Shown here piece by piece: positions 14,572 to 50,071 of a stretch of DNA of 64,000 bases. Source of the stretch: Opitutales bacterium (GTDB lineage: Bacteria > Verrucomicrobiota > Verrucomicrobiia > Opitutales > UBA953); NCBI GenBank assembly GCA_040398005.1, contig JBBAUX010000002.1, positions 32,001 through 96,000 on the forward strand, written 5' to 3'. Positions within the stretch are counted from its first letter, which is position 1; the number at the start of each line of letters is the position of its first letter. Both the position numbers and the translations under genes were made by a program. Under the pieces are notes generated by a model. The model did no database searches. It saw only the letters and a list, made by a program, of their open reading frames with translations, and was not told the origin of the DNA.

Positions 14572-14615
14572 CCAGATATTGACATCCATCTTCATATCTT
14601 GATACGATGATACAT

Positions 14616-15497
14616 ATGCCTAAGGCAGAATTTATTAACCGTTTGCGGGCCAAGCATCGGCCGACTGTTTCGGTGGAGTTTTTTCCACCCAAAACATCGT
14701 CGGATGGTGCATCTATGTTGGAAACGGCAAAAATTCTCAAACCTCTGGGCGTAGACTTTGCTTCGATTACTTATGGTGCAGGTGGTTCGGACCGCTCTAC
14801 GGTTTTAGAATATGGCAGCCAATTGGTTAAAGCCGGTTACCCACTCATTGCCCACTTAACTTGTGTGGGGCATAGTAGGGAAGAGCTAAAAGAAATTATC
14901 AGCAAATATGATGTTGCCGGCTTTGCAGGTATTCTCGCGTTGCGTGGCGATCCGCCTAAGGGTCAAAACGAATTCATCGCCCACCCTCAAGGTTTTGCCT
15001 ATGCTTCGGGCCTAGTTGAATTGATTAAAGAAAGTTTTCCGAATCGTTTTGCCTTAGGAGTCGCCGGTTTCCCCGAAAGACATCCTTCGTCGCCCGACGA
15101 CTTATCGGATATCCGTTATTTAGCCGGAAAAGTTTCCGCAGGCGCAGATTTTATTACCACCCAACTTTTCTTAGACAACGAAGACTATTTTAACTTCGTG
15201 AATCGGGCTCGTGCGGCGGGAGTTGCCGTCCCGATTTTACCAGGGATTATGCCGGTATTATCTTTGAAGCAGGCCCGTCGATTCTGTGGATTTTGTAAGG
15301 CTAAAATCCCTGATTTATTGGTAAAGGAATTAGAGTCCTGTGGGGAGGACGAAGAAGCGCAACGCCAGGTGGGTGTTTCTTGGGCAGTGCGACAAATTAA
15401 GGGTCTGCTCAGTCGCGGTGCACCTGGCTATCACGTTTATATTCTGAATCGTGCACAGTCGGCGGTAGAATTATTTAAGCAATTAGAAGCTAAATAA
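14616..15497 (+). CDS. metF: 5,10-methylenetetrahydrofolate reductase
   Basis: SVEFFPPK, TYGAGGS, AHLTCVG, ALRGDPP, ITTQLF; ATG at 14616 fits the upstream promoter better than 14607. Confidence 0.95.
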   Translation: MPKAEFINRLRAKHRPTVSVEFFPPKTSSDGASMLETAKILKPLGVDFASITYGAGGSDRSTVLEYGSQLVKAGYPLIAHLTCVGHSREELKEIISKYDVAGFAGILALRGDPPKGQNEFIAHPQGFAYASGLVELIKESFPNRFALGVAGFPERHPSSPDDLSDIRYLAGKVSAGADFITTQLFLDNEDYFNFVNRARAAGVAVPILPGIMPVLSLKQARRFCGFCKAKIPDLLVKELESCGEDEEAQRQVGVSWAVRQIKGLLSRGAPGYHVYILNRAQSAVELFKQLEAK

Positions 15498-38989: not shown

Positions 38990-40036
38990 TCAGAGTGACG
39001 AACCTTCTTGGCTGGGAGGCACTAGGCCAATTGCTCGCCAGCCTTTTGGGCTAAGAACGCGACCTTGGGGTGTGCGGGAGATGTAGCCTTCGAGCACTAA
39101 AAAGGGTTCATGAACTTCTTCGAGTGTATGGGCATCTTCGCCGATGGCGGCACCGATACTATTTAATCCAACTGGCCCACCGTTGTGTTTTTCGGCCATC
39201 GCTCGGAGGAATCGGTGATCCATTTCATCTAAACCATTCTGATCGATTTCAAGTAATTCTAAAGCCGCCGCCGTAATTTTAGCGTCCGCTTTACCTTCAG
39301 CACGCTCGAGTGCATAGTCGCGTGTGAAGCGTAATAAATTATTCACGATACGAGGAGTACCTCTAGCGCGACGGGAAACTTCTTCGGCGCCACCTTGGTC
39401 AAGGGTGAGATTTAATAACAGCGCGTTGCGTTGTACAATCGAGAGGAGTTGTTCCTGATTATAATAATCGAGGCGAGTCTGTAAGGTGAATCGACTGCGC
39501 AAGGGTGCAGTGAGTAATCCGGTCCGCGTGGTTGCACCGATCAGAGTAAATTTAGGTAATTCGAGACGAACGCTCCGTGCGTTGGGACCTTGATCGATCA
39601 TGATATCGATACGGAAATCTTCCATCGCTGAATATAAGAATTCTTCTACCGTTTTGGGAATGCGATGAATTTCATCGATGAATAAAATCTCGCCTTCTTG
39701 AAGGCTAGTGAGAAGACCAGCGAGGTCGGAAGCTTTTTCAATGACTGGTCCGGAAGTGATGCGAATAGTTTTATTCATCTCGCCCGCTAAAATCATGGCG
39801 AGGGTGGTTTTGCCGAGGCCGGGTGGGCCGTGAATGAGAATGTGATCGAGGGTGCGACTTTCACGTCGAGCCGCGCCGACCATGACTTTTAAGCGTTCCA
39901 CGGTGCGTGCTTGGCCGACAAAGCTATCGAATTTTTCGGGTCGTAAAGCTTGGTCTAAGTGACGATCGGGCGAAGCCGCTTCGCCTTTGCCCAAGGATTT
40001 CTTGGGGGAGTCGGAAGGATTTTTGCCAGCGGCCAT
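38990..40036 (-). CDS. ruvB: Holliday junction branch migration helicase RuvB
   Basis: LRPEKF, GPPGLGKT, FIDEIHR, RGTPRI, RTPQGR. Confidence 0.97.
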   Translation of the reverse strand: MAAGKNPSDSPKKSLGKGEAASPDRHLDQALRPEKFDSFVGQARTVERLKVMVGAARRESRTLDHILIHGPPGLGKTTLAMILAGEMNKTIRITSGPVIEKASDLAGLLTSLQEGEILFIDEIHRIPKTVEEFLYSAMEDFRIDIMIDQGPNARSVRLELPKFTLIGATTRTGLLTAPLRSRFTLQTRLDYYNQEQLLSIVQRNALLLNLTLDQGGAEEVSRRARGTPRIVNNLLRFTRDYALERAEGKADAKITAAALELLEIDQNGLDEMDHRFLRAMAEKHNGGPVGLNSIGAAIGEDAHTLEEVHEPFLVLEGYISRTPQGRVLSPKGWRAIGLVPPSQEGSSL

Positions 40037-40073
40037 AAGTTTAAATTAAGAAGAAAAATTATTTAAGCAATCA

Positions 40074-41366
40074 TCACTCCTCGGCAAAACCCTTGGGCAT
40101 GGCGGAGGAGGGCAGTCGCTCGATGTCGGCACCTAGGTTGCGAAGTCTTTCTTCGAATTGTTCGTATCCTCGGTCCAAGTGATAAAGTCTTTGGACCCAG
40201 GTTTCGCCCGTGGCGGCGAGTGCGGCGAGTATCAGTGCGGCGGAGGCACGTAAGTCGGAGGCCATCACGGGTGCACCGGAAAGTGGGCGATCGCCGTAGA
40301 CGGCAGCGGTGGATCCTTCGATGGCAATTTCTGCACCCATCCGTTGTAACTCTGCGGCGTGCATGAATCGTGACGGATAAATTTTTTCGGTAAAGGTGCT
40401 GCGTCCGGGTACTTTTAATTGCAGGGCCATGAATTGCGCTTGGAGGTCGGTGGGAAATCCAGGATAAGGTTCAGTAATAATTTCCACTGCTTGGGTTGGT
40501 TGTCCGAAAGCCCGAATCGTATCTTCACTCGTTTCGATGTGAACGCCGACCTCTTTAAGTTTTTCGAGAAACGCGGTGAGGTGTTGAGGGTTACAGTGCG
40601 TCACCGTTAAGTCTCCACCCGTAATCGCTGCAGCGACGAGATAAGTTCCCGTTTCAATGCGATCCGAAATAATCGTATGTTCGCAACCGTGTAATTTTTC
40701 GACTCCTTCAATAGTGATTAAGGGTGTACCGTGACCACTGATTTTCGCGCCCATTTTATTGAGTAAACTACAAAGGTCACTGATTTCGGGTTCGAGGGCC
40801 GCAGACTCAATTCTCGTAAGGCCGGGAGTGAGTGTCGCCGCCATAATTATATTGGCTGTGCCGGTGACGGTGCTACCCATCGGACCGCCCATAAAAACAT
40901 TTTCACCTCGAGCTTGCTGGGCGTTTACTTTGATCACGCCGTTTTCTACTTCGACGATACAGTTTAAAGTTTCTAAACCTTTTAAGTGTAAATCAATCGG
41001 ACGAATGCCGATGATACAGCCACCAGGAAGAGCCATCTCGGCTTGGCGGAGTCGTCCGACTAAGGCGCCGAGTAGACAGACCGAAGCTCTCATCTTTCGT
41101 ACTAAATCATAAGGAGTGCGATGGGTGATTTCTTCGGCCGTGATGGTCCAAGTACCTTTTTGTGGATTCTCTATTTTTGCTCCTTGGTGTTTTAAAATTT
41201 CAACCATGAAGCGCACGTCACTTAAATTCGGAACGTTGTGCAGCGTGACGGTTTCGTGGGTGAGGAGGGCGGCCGCTAAAATAGGGAGAGCGGAATTTTT
41301 TGAACCCGACGCACGCAGTGAACCTTTGATGGGATTGCCTCCACGAATGCGTGCGACTTCGAGCAT
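40074..41366 (-). CDS. murA: UDP-N-acetylglucosamine 1-carboxyvinyltransferase
   Basis: GSKNSALP, MRAS, PGGCIIGIRPID, FPTDLQ, DLRAS, LDRGY. Confidence 0.97.
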   Translation of the reverse strand: MLEVARIRGGNPIKGSLRASGSKNSALPILAAALLTHETVTLHNVPNLSDVRFMVEILKHQGAKIENPQKGTWTITAEEITHRTPYDLVRKMRASVCLLGALVGRLRQAEMALPGGCIIGIRPIDLHLKGLETLNCIVEVENGVIKVNAQQARGENVFMGGPMGSTVTGTANIIMAATLTPGLTRIESAALEPEISDLCSLLNKMGAKISGHGTPLITIEGVEKLHGCEHTIISDRIETGTYLVAAAITGGDLTVTHCNPQHLTAFLEKLKEVGVHIETSEDTIRAFGQPTQAVEIITEPYPGFPTDLQAQFMALQLKVPGRSTFTEKIYPSRFMHAAELQRMGAEIAIEGSTAAVYGDRPLSGAPVMASDLRASAALILAALAATGETWVQRLYHLDRGYEQFEERLRNLGADIERLPSSAMPKGFAEE

Positions 41367-41382
41367 GATTTAATTTTTATAT

Positions 41383-41411
41383 AAAAAAAGGGGGTGCAAA
41401 TTGCACCCCCT
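41383..41411 (-). terminator. Intrinsic terminator after the disordered protein gene
   Basis: AGGGGGTGCAA / TTGCACCCCCT stem with a U-tract on the minus strand. Confidence 0.85.
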
Positions 41412-41417
41412 AATTTT

Positions 41418-42197
41418 TTATCCTTGGCGAGGACCTTGTCGACGGAAGTTTGGTCGACTTCCACGACGCGGACCACCTTGGCCGCCATGAGGGCGAGGAC
41501 CGTCGCGATAATCACGAGGGCCGCGACTGCGCTGAGGGTTTCGGCTGGGTGATGCTGTTGCTGATGACTTTACGGAAATACCGAAAAGAGAAGCAATTTT
41601 ACGTTTCAAGTTAGCCCAAAAACCAATCGGTGATTGTTCAGGAATCACGACGGGATCGATGTGTAACTTTTGACGTTCAGGGCGTGGTTCACGACGAGCT
41701 TGTGGCGCAGCATAGGCGTTTTCTTGGCGCTCATGTTGTGGTTCACGTGGTTCACGTGGAGCACGATAGGGAGGACGCGAGTCACGTTCAAAACGTTGTT
41801 GCTCATGACGAGGCTGTTCTTGGCGAGGCTCGCGAGGAGCTTGGTAAGATGCAGGAGTGGCTTGAGTTGGACGAGGCTGTTTGGCCAATTCACCGGAAAG
41901 TGATTCGGTGACTTGAGCGGGATTTTCGATCACGCCGATTGAAGGACGTGAGTTTGCGGTTTTGCCACTGGGGGCGACGTTTGAAGGAGTACCACGACGA
42001 CCAAATTGCTTAGGTGTTGAGATAGTTCCGGGTTTGACGGCGGGTTCGGTGGAAGCACCGATTACTGACATAGGGGGGAGGGTCGCGTGAGCGACTTCCA
42101 ACTTAGATTCGGTAATGCGTGGTGCTGGGTTTGTTGCCACGGGGGCAACGGACGGTGAGGAAGTATTTTCCTGACCTTTATTTTCTTCTGGGTTCAT
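41418..42197 (-). CDS. Hypothetical intrinsically disordered protein, RNase E scaffold-like
   Basis: 259-aa ORF rich in P/S/T/R/Q/G with REPR repeats, amphipathic GFWANLKRKIASLFG and an RG-rich tail; followed by its own terminator. Confidence 0.75.
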   Translation of the reverse strand: MNPEENKGQENTSSPSVAPVATNPAPRITESKLEVAHATLPPMSVIGASTEPAVKPGTISTPKQFGRRGTPSNVAPSGKTANSRPSIGVIENPAQVTESLSGELAKQPRPTQATPASYQAPREPRQEQPRHEQQRFERDSRPPYRAPREPREPQHERQENAYAAPQARREPRPERQKLHIDPVVIPEQSPIGFWANLKRKIASLFGISVKSSATASPSRNPQRSRGPRDYRDGPRPHGGQGGPRRGSRPNFRRQGPRQG

Positions 42198-42245
42198 TTT
42201 CTCTTGGATGTGGCGACTTAGTTAGTAGGTCGCTGGGTGATGACC

Positions 42246-42417
42246 GTCTCTGCCGTTGTGGCTGATGGGTCGGTATTTTCGGTTTCCTGCTTTTGACTTA
42301 TGTTGAATAAGAGAGGTACCGAAGGTGCTAAGATTCTCATCTTAGAACCCCTGTGAATAAGTGTCTCCCCCTACTTTAACAATAAGAAAGTCCCCATTCC
42401 GCCAAAATGGTGAAAAT
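42246..42417 (-). ncRNA. Candidate structured RNA (6S RNA-like or long leader); strand uncertain
   Basis: Long-range pairing 42252-42269 with 42393-42411, central unpaired bubble, inner stem 42296-42301/42357-42362, hairpin 42328-42345. Confidence 0.45.
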
Positions 42418-42470
42418 TTGTTCATAATTCGCCCTTTTAGGCCTTTAATTGAGGTGGGCTAGCCCCGGGT

Positions 42471-43907
42471 CTAGCGTGCCTCGTCGGTAAAGCGCTGCTC
42501 TCGGATCAGGGTAATTTTGATGTTACCCTGGTAGGAGAGTTTTTCCTCGATGGCGGAACGGAGCCGGCGAAGTAATTCGCTCGCGGCAAAGTCGTCCACT
42601 TTCACGGGATCGACGATGACGCGAAGTTCGCGGCCCGATTGAAAGGCGTAGGCTTCTTTGACGCCTTCAAAGGTGAGCACTAACTCTTCAAGATTCTTTA
42701 CGCGTTGAGCGTAACTTTCTAAAGTCGATGAACGAGCGCCTGGGCGGGAGCCGGAAACGCTATCCGCAATCATCACGAGAGGTGCCAATAAACTTTCCGC
42801 TTCTACTTCGCGGTGGTGAGCGGCGACGGCGTTGACAACGCGTGGGTCTTCGCCGACGCGACGAAGGAGATTCGCTCCGGCAGCGGCATGAGTTAATCCA
42901 TTATCCGCATCAATCGCTTTTCCTAAATCATGTAATAATCCAGCCCGCTTCGCGAGTACGGGGTCGATGCCAATTTCTGCCGCGAGTACGGCGCAGACTT
43001 GGGCCACTTCGACGGAGTGAGCTAAAGTATTTTGATTGGAGGATAAACGGAAATGCAGTCGGCCTAATAATTCTTCGACCTTCACATCCATCGGAGGAAG
43101 GCCTAAATCTCGCACCGCTTCGTGTCCTAAATGTTGCGCGTGGCGTGTGACTTCATTTTCTGCCGTAAGTACAAATTCTTCAATTAAAGTAGGGGTGATG
43201 CGACCATCCTTAACCATTCTTTCTAGAGCGATACGAGCGACTTCGCGACGGACGGGATCGAAACAAGAAATTAAAACCATGCCTGGGGTTTCATCGACGA
43301 GCAGGGTGGCACCCGTGCTTTGTTCGAAGGTGCGAATGTTGCGACCCTCACGACCAATTAAACGCCCCTTCATATCTTCGCTGGGAATAGAAACAGAAAC
43401 CGCGGTCGCATCTTGCGTTGTCGTAGTCGTCAGTCTTTGCATCGCTGTGATTAAAATCCGACGTGCTTCTTCTTCGGTTTCTTGTTCGGGACGATCGAGA
43501 TTTTCTTCACGCAAGCGTCGTGCCTCACTCTCATATTTTTTTTGTAGTGACTCAAAAGCGAGCTGTTTAGCTTCATCGGACTTTAAGCCCGAGAGTCGTA
43601 ATATTTCTTTTTGTAAAAATTCACGCTCTTTTTCGTTCGCTGTCTTTAAGGCGGCGACGGCGTCGGCCTCAGATTGCGCGAGCACCAGGAGTCGCCCTGC
43701 TTCACGTTGCGAGGCTTCCACTTTAACTTGCAGTTCAGAGGTTTCCAGCGAGGCCTCCCGTTTTGCTAACTCGATTTCATTTTTTAAACGTTCCTCGTAC
43801 AGAGCTTTGATGGTCTGGGCTCTCCATTTCAAAAAAGCGTAAGCGACCATCATCCCTGCAAAAAAGATGACTACGGAAATTGTACTTTGATCGGTGGCAA
43901 AAGCCAT
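42471..43907 (-). CDS. rny: Ribonuclease Y
   Basis: N-terminal TM, coiled coil, KH domain (MKGRLIGREGRNIR), HD domain (LLHDLGK), SRPGAR. Confidence 0.95.
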   Translation of the reverse strand: MAFATDQSTISVVIFFAGMMVAYAFLKWRAQTIKALYEERLKNEIELAKREASLETSELQVKVEASQREAGRLLVLAQSEADAVAALKTANEKEREFLQKEILRLSGLKSDEAKQLAFESLQKKYESEARRLREENLDRPEQETEEEARRILITAMQRLTTTTTQDATAVSVSIPSEDMKGRLIGREGRNIRTFEQSTGATLLVDETPGMVLISCFDPVRREVARIALERMVKDGRITPTLIEEFVLTAENEVTRHAQHLGHEAVRDLGLPPMDVKVEELLGRLHFRLSSNQNTLAHSVEVAQVCAVLAAEIGIDPVLAKRAGLLHDLGKAIDADNGLTHAAAGANLLRRVGEDPRVVNAVAAHHREVEAESLLAPLVMIADSVSGSRPGARSSTLESYAQRVKNLEELVLTFEGVKEAYAFQSGRELRVIVDPVKVDDFAASELLRRLRSAIEEKLSYQGNIKITLIREQRFTDEAR

Positions 43908-44018
43908 ACAGTTGAAGTCGGTGTGGTCGGCTTTTAAAAGTTACCAGCTCCGCCCAGTCCGCAAGCCCTTTCGGGAGGTTCGCCTTGCACATTGTCTTTT
44001 AGATGTTTGATTTTAGAG

Positions 44019-45347
44019 ATGTCTCGCCTTTTTGAGAGTGAAGGAGCTCAGGTGTCTGCCTGGTGGGAGAAATTTGCCAATTTTTCTTGGCGGACGGATT
44101 GGACACAGGTGGTCATTATTTTAGCGTTAAGCACCTTAGGGGTCGTCGCGATTAAATCAGCAGGCTCTTACCGGCAGACCAATTTTGAAACGCCGCAGAT
44201 GATTTATGTGGGCATTGGTTGGTTGGCTTACTGGATGATCTCCTCGTTGGATTATCGTAAGCTACGTGTCCACGCGCGCCGCATTTATTTAATCGGGATT
44301 CTCCTGCTGGTACCGATATCTTTTTGTGCATTTTTTAAAATAAATATTGGTTCATTTATTCGGAGTATTAACGGCGCACGTCGCTGGATGGATTTCGGTC
44401 CTTTTTCCATTCAGCCTTCCGAATTTGCCAAAGTTTCCGCCCTCATTTTTATCGCGGCGGTCTTGGTCTTAAATCCGATTGGGTCGTGGCGTAAGTCGTG
44501 GCCCACGGTCGTCAAGGTTTTGGCCGCGGCCGGCCTACCGTTTGTCTTGATTTTTGTGCAGCCTGACTTAGGCTCTGCCCTCATCTACCTTCCACTGTCA
44601 TTTGCCTTGTTGTTTGTTGCCGGCCTGAGTTCCAGGTTTTTCATGGTGGCGGGATTGAGTGCCGTCTTATTGGGAGCCGTGGTTGCAGTAGATTTAGTTT
44701 CTTACGCTTCCAAAGTGACGGCGTACGCTAAAGCGCATGAAGATGATTTAAATCCCGCCAAAGCGATTCGCGGAAAACATGAAGATACGGCCTGGTTTTT
44801 TCTTTTGAAGGATTATCAACGCGAACGCTTACTTTCCTTTGTAGCACCTTCCATCATTGATCCGCGCGGACGCGGGGCGACGTGGAATGTGAAACAGGCT
44901 GTCATCGCGGTCGGGCGTGGCGGATTAGAAGGACAGGGCATCGGTAAAGGCACCCAAGCGAAGTATGGTTACCTTCCGGAAGCGGCGGCGCATAATGATT
45001 TTCTATTTTCGGGAATGGCTGAAGAAATTGGTTTTCGCGGGGGACTCTTTGTCGTGGTCGCTTTTGCTTGGTTGCTCTGGCGCATTGTGCGAACCGCCTT
45101 AATGGCCATCGACCGCTTTGGATCTTTGTTAGCAATTGGTGCCGCTGTGATTATCGGCACCCATGTCGTTATTAATATCGGCATGAATATCGATTTAATG
45201 CCCGTCACGGGCGTTCCACTACCTTTCCTCAGTTACGGGGGGTCCTTTATTCTCAGCTGCTTTTTGCTTCTCGGATTAGTCCAGAGCGTCCATCGACATT
45301 CGGTGGATGGCGGTGAGAATAGGGGGACTCCAGTAACTGGCATTTAA
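44019..45347 (+). CDS. rodA: SEDS family rod shape-determining protein RodA
   Basis: GARRW, QPSEFAK, QPDLGSA, HNDFLFS, PVTGVPLPFLSYGGS; start trimmed to the ATG at 44019. Confidence 0.85.
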   Translation: MSRLFESEGAQVSAWWEKFANFSWRTDWTQVVIILALSTLGVVAIKSAGSYRQTNFETPQMIYVGIGWLAYWMISSLDYRKLRVHARRIYLIGILLLVPISFCAFFKINIGSFIRSINGARRWMDFGPFSIQPSEFAKVSALIFIAAVLVLNPIGSWRKSWPTVVKVLAAAGLPFVLIFVQPDLGSALIYLPLSFALLFVAGLSSRFFMVAGLSAVLLGAVVAVDLVSYASKVTAYAKAHEDDLNPAKAIRGKHEDTAWFFLLKDYQRERLLSFVAPSIIDPRGRGATWNVKQAVIAVGRGGLEGQGIGKGTQAKYGYLPEAAAHNDFLFSGMAEEIGFRGGLFVVVAFAWLLWRIVRTALMAIDRFGSLLAIGAAVIIGTHVVINIGMNIDLMPVTGVPLPFLSYGGSFILSCFLLLGLVQSVHRHSVDGGENRGTPVTGI

Positions 45348-45362
45348 CGCCATACTACTGCG

Positions 45363-47087
45363 ATGACCGACCAAAATAATTCCGACGATAACCTAAACGA
45401 CCTCCCTGAAGAAAGCACACCGCCGACTTCCTCCGGGGTTGATCCTAAGCAACTCGCTGAAGAAGCCGCGCAACGTCGCAAAGAGTTACCGCTCTTGCAA
45501 CGCATCGTGAAGCACTTCTCCAAAGACCGTGCTAATTATCGCGAACTCGTCATTAATGCCGAGACGCTCGAAAAGCGCGTCGCCCTGCTCACGAATGGCG
45601 TGCTCGATAAATTTGAAATCGAACACAAAGGCGAAAACCGCATGGTCGGTTCAATCTTTAAAGGTCGCGTGCAAAATCTCGAAGCCGGATTAAAAGCCGC
45701 CTTCGTTGATATCGGTCAGTCTAAAAATGCCTTCCTGCATTACTGGGATATGTTGCCGGCCGCGAATGACTCGCAGGTTGAATTTATCCGCGACAATGAA
45801 TCGGCTGAACAAAAACAACGTAAAGCACGCTACCAAGCGAAAGACATTCCGACGCTGTTTCCTGCGGGGTCTGATATCGTCATCCAGGTCGTTAAAGACA
45901 CCATCGGAACTAAAGGTCCTCGTTCGACAACCAACATCGCACTCCCCGGAAGATTTGTAGTCTTAATGCCCTTTAGTGGTGCTTGCGGTGTTTCCCGAAA
46001 AATTGAAGAAGCTCCTGAGCGTGAACGTTTGAAGGATATTTTACGTTCACTCACGATTCCTGAAGGCATGGGTGTAATCATCCGCACGGCGGGTGAAGGT
46101 AAGCAGGCGCGTTGGTTTGTCCGCGATCTCCATATGTTACTGCGCCGCTGGCAATCGATTGTTGAGAAGATCAACAAGTCGGAACAAAAGGCGATCTTAC
46201 TCTACACTGAGCCAGGTTTAATTGAACGAACCGTTCGCGATTTCCTCACCGAAGAAGTGGATCGTATTCTGGTCGATAATCCTGAGGACTTTAAAATCGT
46301 CCAAGACTTGGTTGCGGAAATTTCTCCGCGTTCCAGTTCACGCGTCGAACTTTATAAAGAGCCGATTCCCGTTTTCGAACGCTACAATATCGAACGTCAG
46401 ATTGAACAACTTTTCCAACGTCGCGTTCCACTGCCTAGCGGTGGCGAAATTGTAATTGATGAAACCGAAGCGCTGACCGCGATTGACGTTAACACGGGCT
46501 CGCACCGCGGTACGACCAAAGATGGTAAAGACTATATTTTACAGGCTAATATCGAGGCCGTCACCGAGGGTGCCCGCCAAATCAAGCTCCGCAATTTAGG
46601 GGGCTTAATCATGATTGATACCATCGATATGAAAAACCCCAAGGATCGTAAAACCGTTTACGATATTTTGCGCGAGGCGATGGAAGACGATCGAGCCAAG
46701 CACCAGATTTTACCGATTTCCCAATTAGGCGTGTTGCAGATGACTCGTCAGCGTCACACCGAATCGAATACGACTTCGATGTACATGGATTGTCCGCATT
46801 GTCAGGGTCGCGGTATCGTTAAAAATCCTCGAACCGTCTCGGTGGAAATTCAACGTAAGCTTTTAAGTGTGATCCGTCGCTTGCGCGAACAAGTGGGTCC
46901 AGACAAAGAATTAGAAATTAATATTCTGCTTCACCCGATTAACTTGGATCGCATCGTGAAAGAAGACCGCGAATATTTCCGCGATTTAATGAAGTCATGT
47001 AAGGTTCGTCTGGGCACTAAGCCTGACGCTACTTACAGCATTGAAACGTTTAAATTATTCGACGGTGCGGGCAAAGAATTGCGCTAA
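45363..47087 (+). CDS. RNase E/G family endoribonuclease (catalytic domain only, N-terminal extension)
   Basis: S1 domain (AAFVDIG), IIRTAG, AIDVNTG, RNLGGLIMID, Zn-link CPHCQGRG; no C-terminal disordered region. Confidence 0.93.
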   Translation: MTDQNNSDDNLNDLPEESTPPTSSGVDPKQLAEEAAQRRKELPLLQRIVKHFSKDRANYRELVINAETLEKRVALLTNGVLDKFEIEHKGENRMVGSIFKGRVQNLEAGLKAAFVDIGQSKNAFLHYWDMLPAANDSQVEFIRDNESAEQKQRKARYQAKDIPTLFPAGSDIVIQVVKDTIGTKGPRSTTNIALPGRFVVLMPFSGACGVSRKIEEAPERERLKDILRSLTIPEGMGVIIRTAGEGKQARWFVRDLHMLLRRWQSIVEKINKSEQKAILLYTEPGLIERTVRDFLTEEVDRILVDNPEDFKIVQDLVAEISPRSSSRVELYKEPIPVFERYNIERQIEQLFQRRVPLPSGGEIVIDETEALTAIDVNTGSHRGTTKDGKDYILQANIEAVTEGARQIKLRNLGGLIMIDTIDMKNPKDRKTVYDILREAMEDDRAKHQILPISQLGVLQMTRQRHTESNTTSMYMDCPHCQGRGIVKNPRTVSVEIQRKLLSVIRRLREQVGPDKELEINILLHPINLDRIVKEDREYFRDLMKSCKVRLGTKPDATYSIETFKLFDGAGKELR

Positions 47088-49684: not shown

Positions 49685-50071
49685 GTGACTAACCGAACCG
49701 AAACCATCAGCGAAAGTCTCATCACCGTGTCCCTTCCTACGAAGTTACACACTGAAGCAATCGCTTTTCAGCAACGCGCCGGCTTGTCTAATTTGAGCGA
49801 AGTGATCAGGCATGCGTTAGAGAATTGTCCTGAGAATCGTTTGAACGTTGAACCAACCAACTCCCGCCAAGTGTCTTTCCGAGTCCCCTCGGAGCTCCGC
49901 ACTCGTATTACCCGTCAGGCTCGTCAGGCCCGGGTGAGTGTAGGGCGCATCGTCAGGGTGGCGCTTCAGTCGCTGCCCTCTAACCCAACAACGAACATCA
50001 CAACTATGGCAAAAAAGAAAAAAGCTGCTAAGAAATCAGTAGCTAAAAAAGCCAAATCCAAGAAGAAATAA
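49685..50071 (+). CDS. Tandem ribbon-helix-helix (CopG-like) protein with Lys-rich tail
   Basis: ITVSLP...LSEVIRHAL and VSFRVP...VGRIVRVAL are two RHH-like units; C-terminal MAKKKKAAKKSVAKKAKSKKK. Confidence 0.7.
   Translation: MTNRTETISESLITVSLPTKLHTEAIAFQQRAGLSNLSEVIRHALENCPENRLNVEPTNSRQVSFRVPSELRTRITRQARQARVSVGRIVRVALQSLPSNPTTNITTMAKKKKAAKKSVAKKAKSKKK

Follow-up and report, generated by a model that had tools for sequence, protein, structure and literature searches.

In the 64,000-nt stretch of DNA analyzed here (the window), a gene of 259 codons lies between rny, which encodes RNase Y, and murA, at about 3 kb from an RNase E/G that ends directly after its catalytic domain. An earlier sequence-only reading had seen in this gene a candidate scaffold of a split RNA degradosome, encoded in trans, and the locus therefore raises the question of what the protein is and whether it belongs to RNA decay at all. 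The reading frame (41418..42197) is on the minus strand, the plus-strand frame of the same interval being rich in stop codons. Gene order on the minus strand is rny, 273 nt, the 259-aa gene, 51 nt, murA and ruvB, while rodA (43992-45347, between the gene and rne) and rne are on the opposite strand, with 3166 nt from the gene to the rne start, in agreement with the position first described. Relative to two close relatives, codon changes in the gene are more often synonymous (25 and 33) than non-synonymous (14 and 14). Contigs from RNA libraries of related strains cover the gene in 4/4 runs and in 3/4 further runs (one run flagged as probably DNA), with indels that preserve the frame. Taken together, the excess of synonymous changes and the RNA contigs with frame-keeping indels establish the 259-aa ORF as a real gene. 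One RNA run (X14) yielded no contig on it; in several runs parts of rny and murA were uncovered, and the contigs cannot rank expression. An Rfam scan of 39900-45500 returned nothing near the gathering score.

The encoded protein matches no Pfam family at E≤0.1 and no NCBIfam family at E≤0.01. Its composition is biased (15% proline, 12% arginine, 9% serine, and 9% alanine), with a net charge of +18 and a FoldIndex of -0.21, and AlphaFold2, supplied with a 42-row alignment, returned a mean pLDDT of 52 and a pTM of 0.16, with a sole helix at residues 193 to 204. These values bear out the sequence-only description of a low-complexity protein predicted to be disordered, without a folded domain and with one helix. 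That helix (aa 192–206; 41580..41624, minus strand), whose coordinates had been given exactly, is amphipathic and predicted to target the membrane. Its hydrophobic moment of 0.59 was reached by 85/5000 helix-only shuffles, and the best 15-mer moment of the protein, 0.60, was equalled in 3/1000 whole-protein shuffles. N terminal to the helix is an Arg/Glu/Pro region (aa 118–176; 41670..41846, minus strand) of variable length within the genus, in which the three REPR repeats noticed earlier were found at aa 122, 148, and 169; REPR occurs in only 5/65 order-wide orthologs. C terminal to it, an Arg/Gly/Pro-rich tail (aa 220–259; 41421..41540, minus strand) is predicted to bind nucleic acid. Nearer the N terminus, the motifs at aa 32–47 and 55–69 (41991..42104, minus strand) are near-invariant in the genus, and their profile reaches the sister genus only. 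The motif at aa 84–106 (IG-V...E-x-L-S-G; 41880..41948, minus strand), a candidate partner-binding site, is common to eight families and scored at least 5 bits in 17/76 orthologs as compared to 0/152 decoys.

A single-sequence search with the 259-aa protein recovered it from 22/24 genomes of the same genus and from 0/16 genomes of other families, although the family is present there, indicating that it is invisible to routine annotation. Among 23 genus loci, rny lies upstream in 20 and murA downstream in 22, the remainder being cut by contig ends. Eighty murA-upstream stretches, taken from 143 genomes with a murA match and hand-picked to spread over families, were filtered for an ORF of low hydrophobicity that encodes an amphipathic helix, a combination that 13 of the 1171 ORFs in the genome of the 259-aa gene also satisfy. 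Sixty-six of the 80 stretches passed and one was removed as a wrong frame, leaving 65/80 from 22 families. Because the helix is part of the filter, its universality among the 65 orthologs, of which it is the one common feature, is partly by construction, and the negative FoldIndex of 65/65 pertains to a set selected for low hydrophobicity. The orthologs range from 163 to 490 aa, 63/65 are net basic, 52/60 have a basic run C terminal to the helix, and RGG is present in 35/65. An MP-E-F-type start is found in 42/65 and is absent from the genus of the 259-aa gene, and no single motif is common to all 65. Helix position varies from 19 to 95% along the chain, lying at the extreme C terminus in one ortholog family (3/3). 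Disorder, helix, and arginine-rich arms, all noted from the one protein, are conserved traits across the family, which by source labels extends over the whole order Opitutales and is kept in 0.8–1.0 Mb genomes of three families.

An order-level profile found 215 representatives among 1.84 billion proteins, and 149 of the 150 best listed are 164–405 aa long. In a search of 131 genomes of the phylum, this profile recovered 13/22 same-order genomes, so its failure to find the family in six genomes (G043, G096, G036, G029, G040, and G018), or a stand-alone family gene outside the order among those 131, is a non-detection rather than an absence. The Atlas, queried via a 92% identical homolog, returned unnamed Verrucomicrobiota clusters only (score 0.91–0.92), and a literature search, with most subscription journals outside its scope, found no paper on the family. 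The family is thus real, undescribed, and order-wide, and is a variant of a helix-and-arginine module already known.

The named proteins that the family profile matches all handle RNA. A Pfam scan of the 150 best listed of the 215 profile representatives left 148 without a family, and the other two are RNase E/G, on which the family profile aligns over the helix and the arginine-rich tail (E 2.8e-6 and 8.6e-6). RNase E helix-plus-arginine tails are therefore the best named matches, in keeping with the compositional and motif-level likeness claimed from the sequence. Five matches fell outside the order in the 131 phylum genomes: three proteins in which a helix and arginine-rich segments precede an RRM domain (helix-Arg-RRM proteins), one DEAD-box helicase (L194:1501-3018) that carries a basic disordered linker and, at the N terminus, an amphipathic helix, and one match in G208 that contains an internal stop. 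Because RNA proteins commonly have arginine-rich disordered tails, this list of matches is biased towards them. Matching of the helix profile to solved structures gave four hits at E 0.37–2.1, which are noise. The nearest named Atlas cluster, a lead only, carries PF12111 on 15% of its members, at a score of 0.77 that is below the tool's mark; PF12111 is the PNPase-binding site of RNase E in the accessible text of PMC4435900. A further architecture was observed in another class of the phylum: an RRM protein that begins with a hydrophobic segment, in an RtmR-like layout (L221, G245:C1).

Helix-Arg-RRM proteins were found in 19/21 genomes of sister orders (L197-L215), representing five of six families in a sample where 13 of the 21 genomes are from one family, and the helix was read by eye in all 19. 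They were not found in 23 genomes of Opitutales, where matches reached 1.4e-24 at best, as is usual for an RRM domain on its own; two such proteins, read directly, are without the helix. The single RRM protein in the genome of the 259-aa gene is encoded elsewhere and has no helix. Across the orders, the distributions of the two kinds of protein look complementary, although a profile that recovered 13/22 same-order genomes could overlook stand-alone members outside the order. The family profile matches helix-Arg-RRM proteins at E 1e-6 to 5e-3 per genome, and for a putative homology of the two hhalign gave a probability of 25.6% over 31 columns, covering the helix only. A literature search found no paper on the helix-Arg-RRM protein, which in Akkermansia, a cultivable gut bacterium, is a candidate membrane-tethered RNA-binding protein.

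Our best explanation, which we give an even chance of being correct, is that the family is a membrane-tethered, RNA-binding disordered protein. The amphipathic helix would dock in the inner leaflet of the cell membrane, the arginine-rich arms would hold RNA there, possibly as condensates, and the short motifs near the N terminus would engage a partner. RNA concentrated at the membrane in this way would supply RNase E/G and RNase Y, each predicted to be membrane-bound independently, and the protein would be a severed part of neither. Such a role would parallel that of the stretch of the RNase E tail where arginine-rich sequence adjoins a membrane helix, and the protein may be the order's counterpart of the sister-order helix-Arg-RRM protein, minus the RRM. 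Judged from sequence features, binding of the 259-aa protein to the membrane via its helix is very likely and binding to RNA is probable, while participation in RNA decay of any kind is a tentative proposal. Consistent with a tether are the one helix in 65/80 stretches as compared to 13/1171 ORFs, the retention of the gene in small genomes, the frequency of the basic stretch and of RGG, and the fact that all named profile matches handle RNA. Against it, the matches derive from composition and a short helix, the neighbors murA and dUTPase are not RNA genes, and shuffle support for the helix is modest.

The closest alternative is the degradosome scaffold of the sequence-only reading, acting directly and in trans: a free disordered protein, anchored in the membrane, that would catch RNA and bind, via its short motifs, the tail-less and N-terminally anchored RNase E/G together with PNPase, or else a helicase or enolase, for assembly at the membrane. 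If true, a whole bacterial order would build its degradosome in trans, within a phylum believed to lack degradosomes; we regard this as unlikely. RNase E/G in the window (45363..47087, plus strand, divergent from the 259-aa gene) has 574 aa and ends with a thioredoxin-like small domain, so that it does stop after the catalytic domain, as had been read. Among RNase E/G loci across the phylum, 44 of 47 were readable, and all 44 are tail-less, ending 194–213 residues past DVNTG. In the accessible text of one review, RNase E/G of Chlamydiae/Verrucomicrobia is given as 510–554 aa with no predicted degradosome-forming potential (PMC3071783). With a tail-less enzyme at every readable locus, any degradosome scaffold would have to be a separate protein, and nothing points to fission. 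RNase E/G was found in every tested genome except one that is 64% complete, and PNPase, a DEAD-box helicase, RNase R/II motifs, and enolase are all present in the genome of the 259-aa gene. Also in favor of a trans scaffold are the conserved short motifs (the MP-E-F start and E-x-L-S-G), the RNase E tails among the top named matches, and the PF12111 lead. Crude motif patterns run on the 1171 ORFs of that genome detected no Rho, Hfq, RNase III, FtsZ, or MinD, but the same patterns missed the enolase that is present, so this list is only a prompt.

Direct ties to the nucleases are harder to find. No motif is common to all orthologs, BLASTP of 76 orthologs against the RNase E/G of the same genome gave no similarity, and no longer fused form of the family (595–2000 aa) was found, which is weak evidence. 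The argument for a "split" degradosome mostly fails, and the 259-aa protein is probably not a broken-off RNase E tail. Prediction of a complex between RNase E/G and aa 25–110 scored 0.00, which counts neither way. P0159, which by eye resembled an RNase E fragment, has no Pfam match and no similarity to P0193, and was left out of the counts. RNase E/G also contains a candidate amphipathic helix of its own near the N terminus (aa 44–54; 45492..45524, plus strand; moment 0.77 over 11 residues). A corresponding helix with a moment of at least 0.6 was present in 28/33 parsed loci, 17/17 from this order and 11/16 from others, counted with 11 loci unparsed and the moments taken without a shuffle control (loci L060-L075 and L234-L262). 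In Verrucomicrobiota this helix is a candidate membrane anchor replacing the usual post-catalytic one; in Opitutales it is preceded by an acidic extension. RNase Y (rny, 42471..43907, minus strand) has an N-terminal hydrophobic segment at aa 8–26. Given these two elements, neither nuclease obviously needs the 259-aa protein to reach the membrane.

Genomic linkage to the RNA-decay genes, from which the split degradosome had been argued, does not extend over the order. A rny match at E≤1e-40 is present in 42/65 carrier genomes and missing from 23/65. By coordinate count, rny lies within 10 kb of the family gene in 2 of the 42, one of them the genus of the 259-aa gene, the only genus in which it is the upstream neighbor. 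The gene following rny is a family member in 0/10 other-family genomes. The rne gene stands beside murA once in 16 other-family genomes, and the family gene was not found in that genome. Conserved linkage or co-occurrence with rny or rne is thus not observed, and the rny neighborhood is a local arrangement, while murA is an old but non-obligatory neighbor. The architecture first proposed for the protein was right; the case for a split degradosome made from gene neighborhood was not.

The persistence of murA (40074..41366, minus strand, downstream) suggests a different alternative, in which the protein would act in cell-wall synthesis or division as a membrane adaptor, expressed together with murA and tethering or regulating MurA or related enzymes. 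Linkage is extensive: the ortholog lies directly 5' of murA in 65/80 stretches, with a gap of about 30 nt or less in 46/65, making murA the conserved neighbor across the order, and the usual gene on the other side is a divergent dUTPase (at least 19/65). Position is kept even where one family has a different murA (35–39% identical) downstream of the ortholog, as seen in 5/5 genomes, with the dUTPase visible in four. Two families of the order have a divergent murA (L173-L177), 33–39% identical to the local one, that occupies the ancestral position or has moved from it, probably through replacement in place, and such replacement would preserve the flanks even without selection. The gene is nevertheless kept away from murA in six groups (the sister genus, G039, G048, G057, G074, and G108); in G039 it was observed upstream of a metallo-beta-lactamase-fold gene instead (L161, G039:C10). 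In sister orders, murA has other upstream genes in 5/5 genomes. The adaptor also leaves the Arg/RGG arms unexplained, and a hairpin separates the two genes. With these points on both sides, we consider a cell-wall adaptor improbable, slightly more so than the trans scaffold.

The hairpin (41389..41411, minus strand) is terminator-like, with 10 pairs followed by a T-rich run, and a matching hairpin was found at 22/22 genus loci. Upstream of the 259-aa gene, a genus-conserved two-part motif, TTGT(T/G)AA-N14-15-TTATTCACA (42352..42382, minus strand), has both halves in 18/20 genus loci, and the pair is unique in the genome. RNA-library contigs end at 42333-42336 in 4/8 runs, two others extending further, one beginning inside, and one being without a contig. 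This motif is likely the promoter or operator of the 259-aa gene itself, and there is a weak hint that the gene is transcribed, in its genus, from a promoter and to a terminator of its own. The TTATTCACA half resembles the DnaA-box consensus, and may be a regulator site on the promoter. A replication origin at this box was considered and rejected, such a box being upstream in 5/65 orthologs only and the genome's box cluster being on contig C1, where four DnaA-box-like sites within 500 nt (G000:C1 near 14572-14790) form a candidate origin. Elsewhere in the window, a ribbon-helix-helix-like ORF with a weak Pfam match (49685-50071, plus strand) contains an RNA contig end at 50016; its last 21 codons start with ATG, are Lys/Ala-rich, and may be a separate histone-like micro-protein.

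Least probable, and in our judgment quite unlikely, is a basic tether that links the nucleoid or translating ribosomes to the membrane and is unrelated to RNA decay, a proposal that would fit the net positive charge of 63/65 orthologs and the source name "translation initiation factor IF-2" of one of them but is disfavored by the predominance of arginine over lysine (median 0.63) and by common RGG motifs, which generally favor RNA over DNA or ribosomes. The IF-2 name itself is without support: that ortholog has no Pfam or NCBIfam family, IF2 and GTPase domains are lacking, and BLASTP found no match to the genome's 807-aa IF2.

With the membrane/RNA tether as the preferred reading, the phylum has three candidates for organizing RNA at the membrane, namely the disordered family, the N-terminal helix of RNase E/G, and the helix-Arg-RRM protein. 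The family can be set beside several known proteins. The C-terminal region of gammaproteobacterial RNase E comprises, in the accessible text of PMC4435900, MTS (565–582), AR1, AR2, HBS, EBS, and PBS. The family is similar in being disordered, with repeats of the REE/REPR kind and one amphipathic helix followed by an arginine-rich stretch, reminiscent of the MTS-AR1 arrangement. Unlike the RNase E tail, it is encoded by a separate gene and its helix may lie almost anywhere along the chain rather than beside a catalytic domain, and the 259-aa protein has no match to HBS, EBS, or PBS by Pfam, in which only PBS has a model. Measured against an RNase E scaffold, biased and repetitive disorder is present and the helix-then-arginine order is recognizable at the sequence level, while derivation from the catalytic domain and, by Pfam, the known partner microdomains were not found. 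RtmR of Vibrio fischeri provides a precedent in that a small stand-alone protein can be bound to the membrane and bind RNA; as described in the accessible text (PMC12265689), it combines a folded RRM with two transmembrane helices, and the 259-aa protein has neither. Helix-Arg-RRM proteins, for example WP_102725762.1 of Akkermansia muciniphila (named hypothetical or RRM protein by its sources), similarly have arginine-rich disordered arms around one amphipathic helix. They differ in ending in an RRM domain (PF00076), which is absent from the 259-aa protein, in having no distinctive motif in common with the family, and in their gene neighbors. The membrane helix of MinD is C-terminal, the same position as that of the helix in one ortholog family (3/3). 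Like the MinD helix, the family helix is short, basic, and amphipathic; since the family has no ATPase domain, the helix type alone is comparable. Helices of both RNase E and MinD have been shown to lie in the inner membrane leaflet, and MinD-type helices are interchangeable as anchors in P. aeruginosa RNase E, as reported in the accessible text of PMC13657362.
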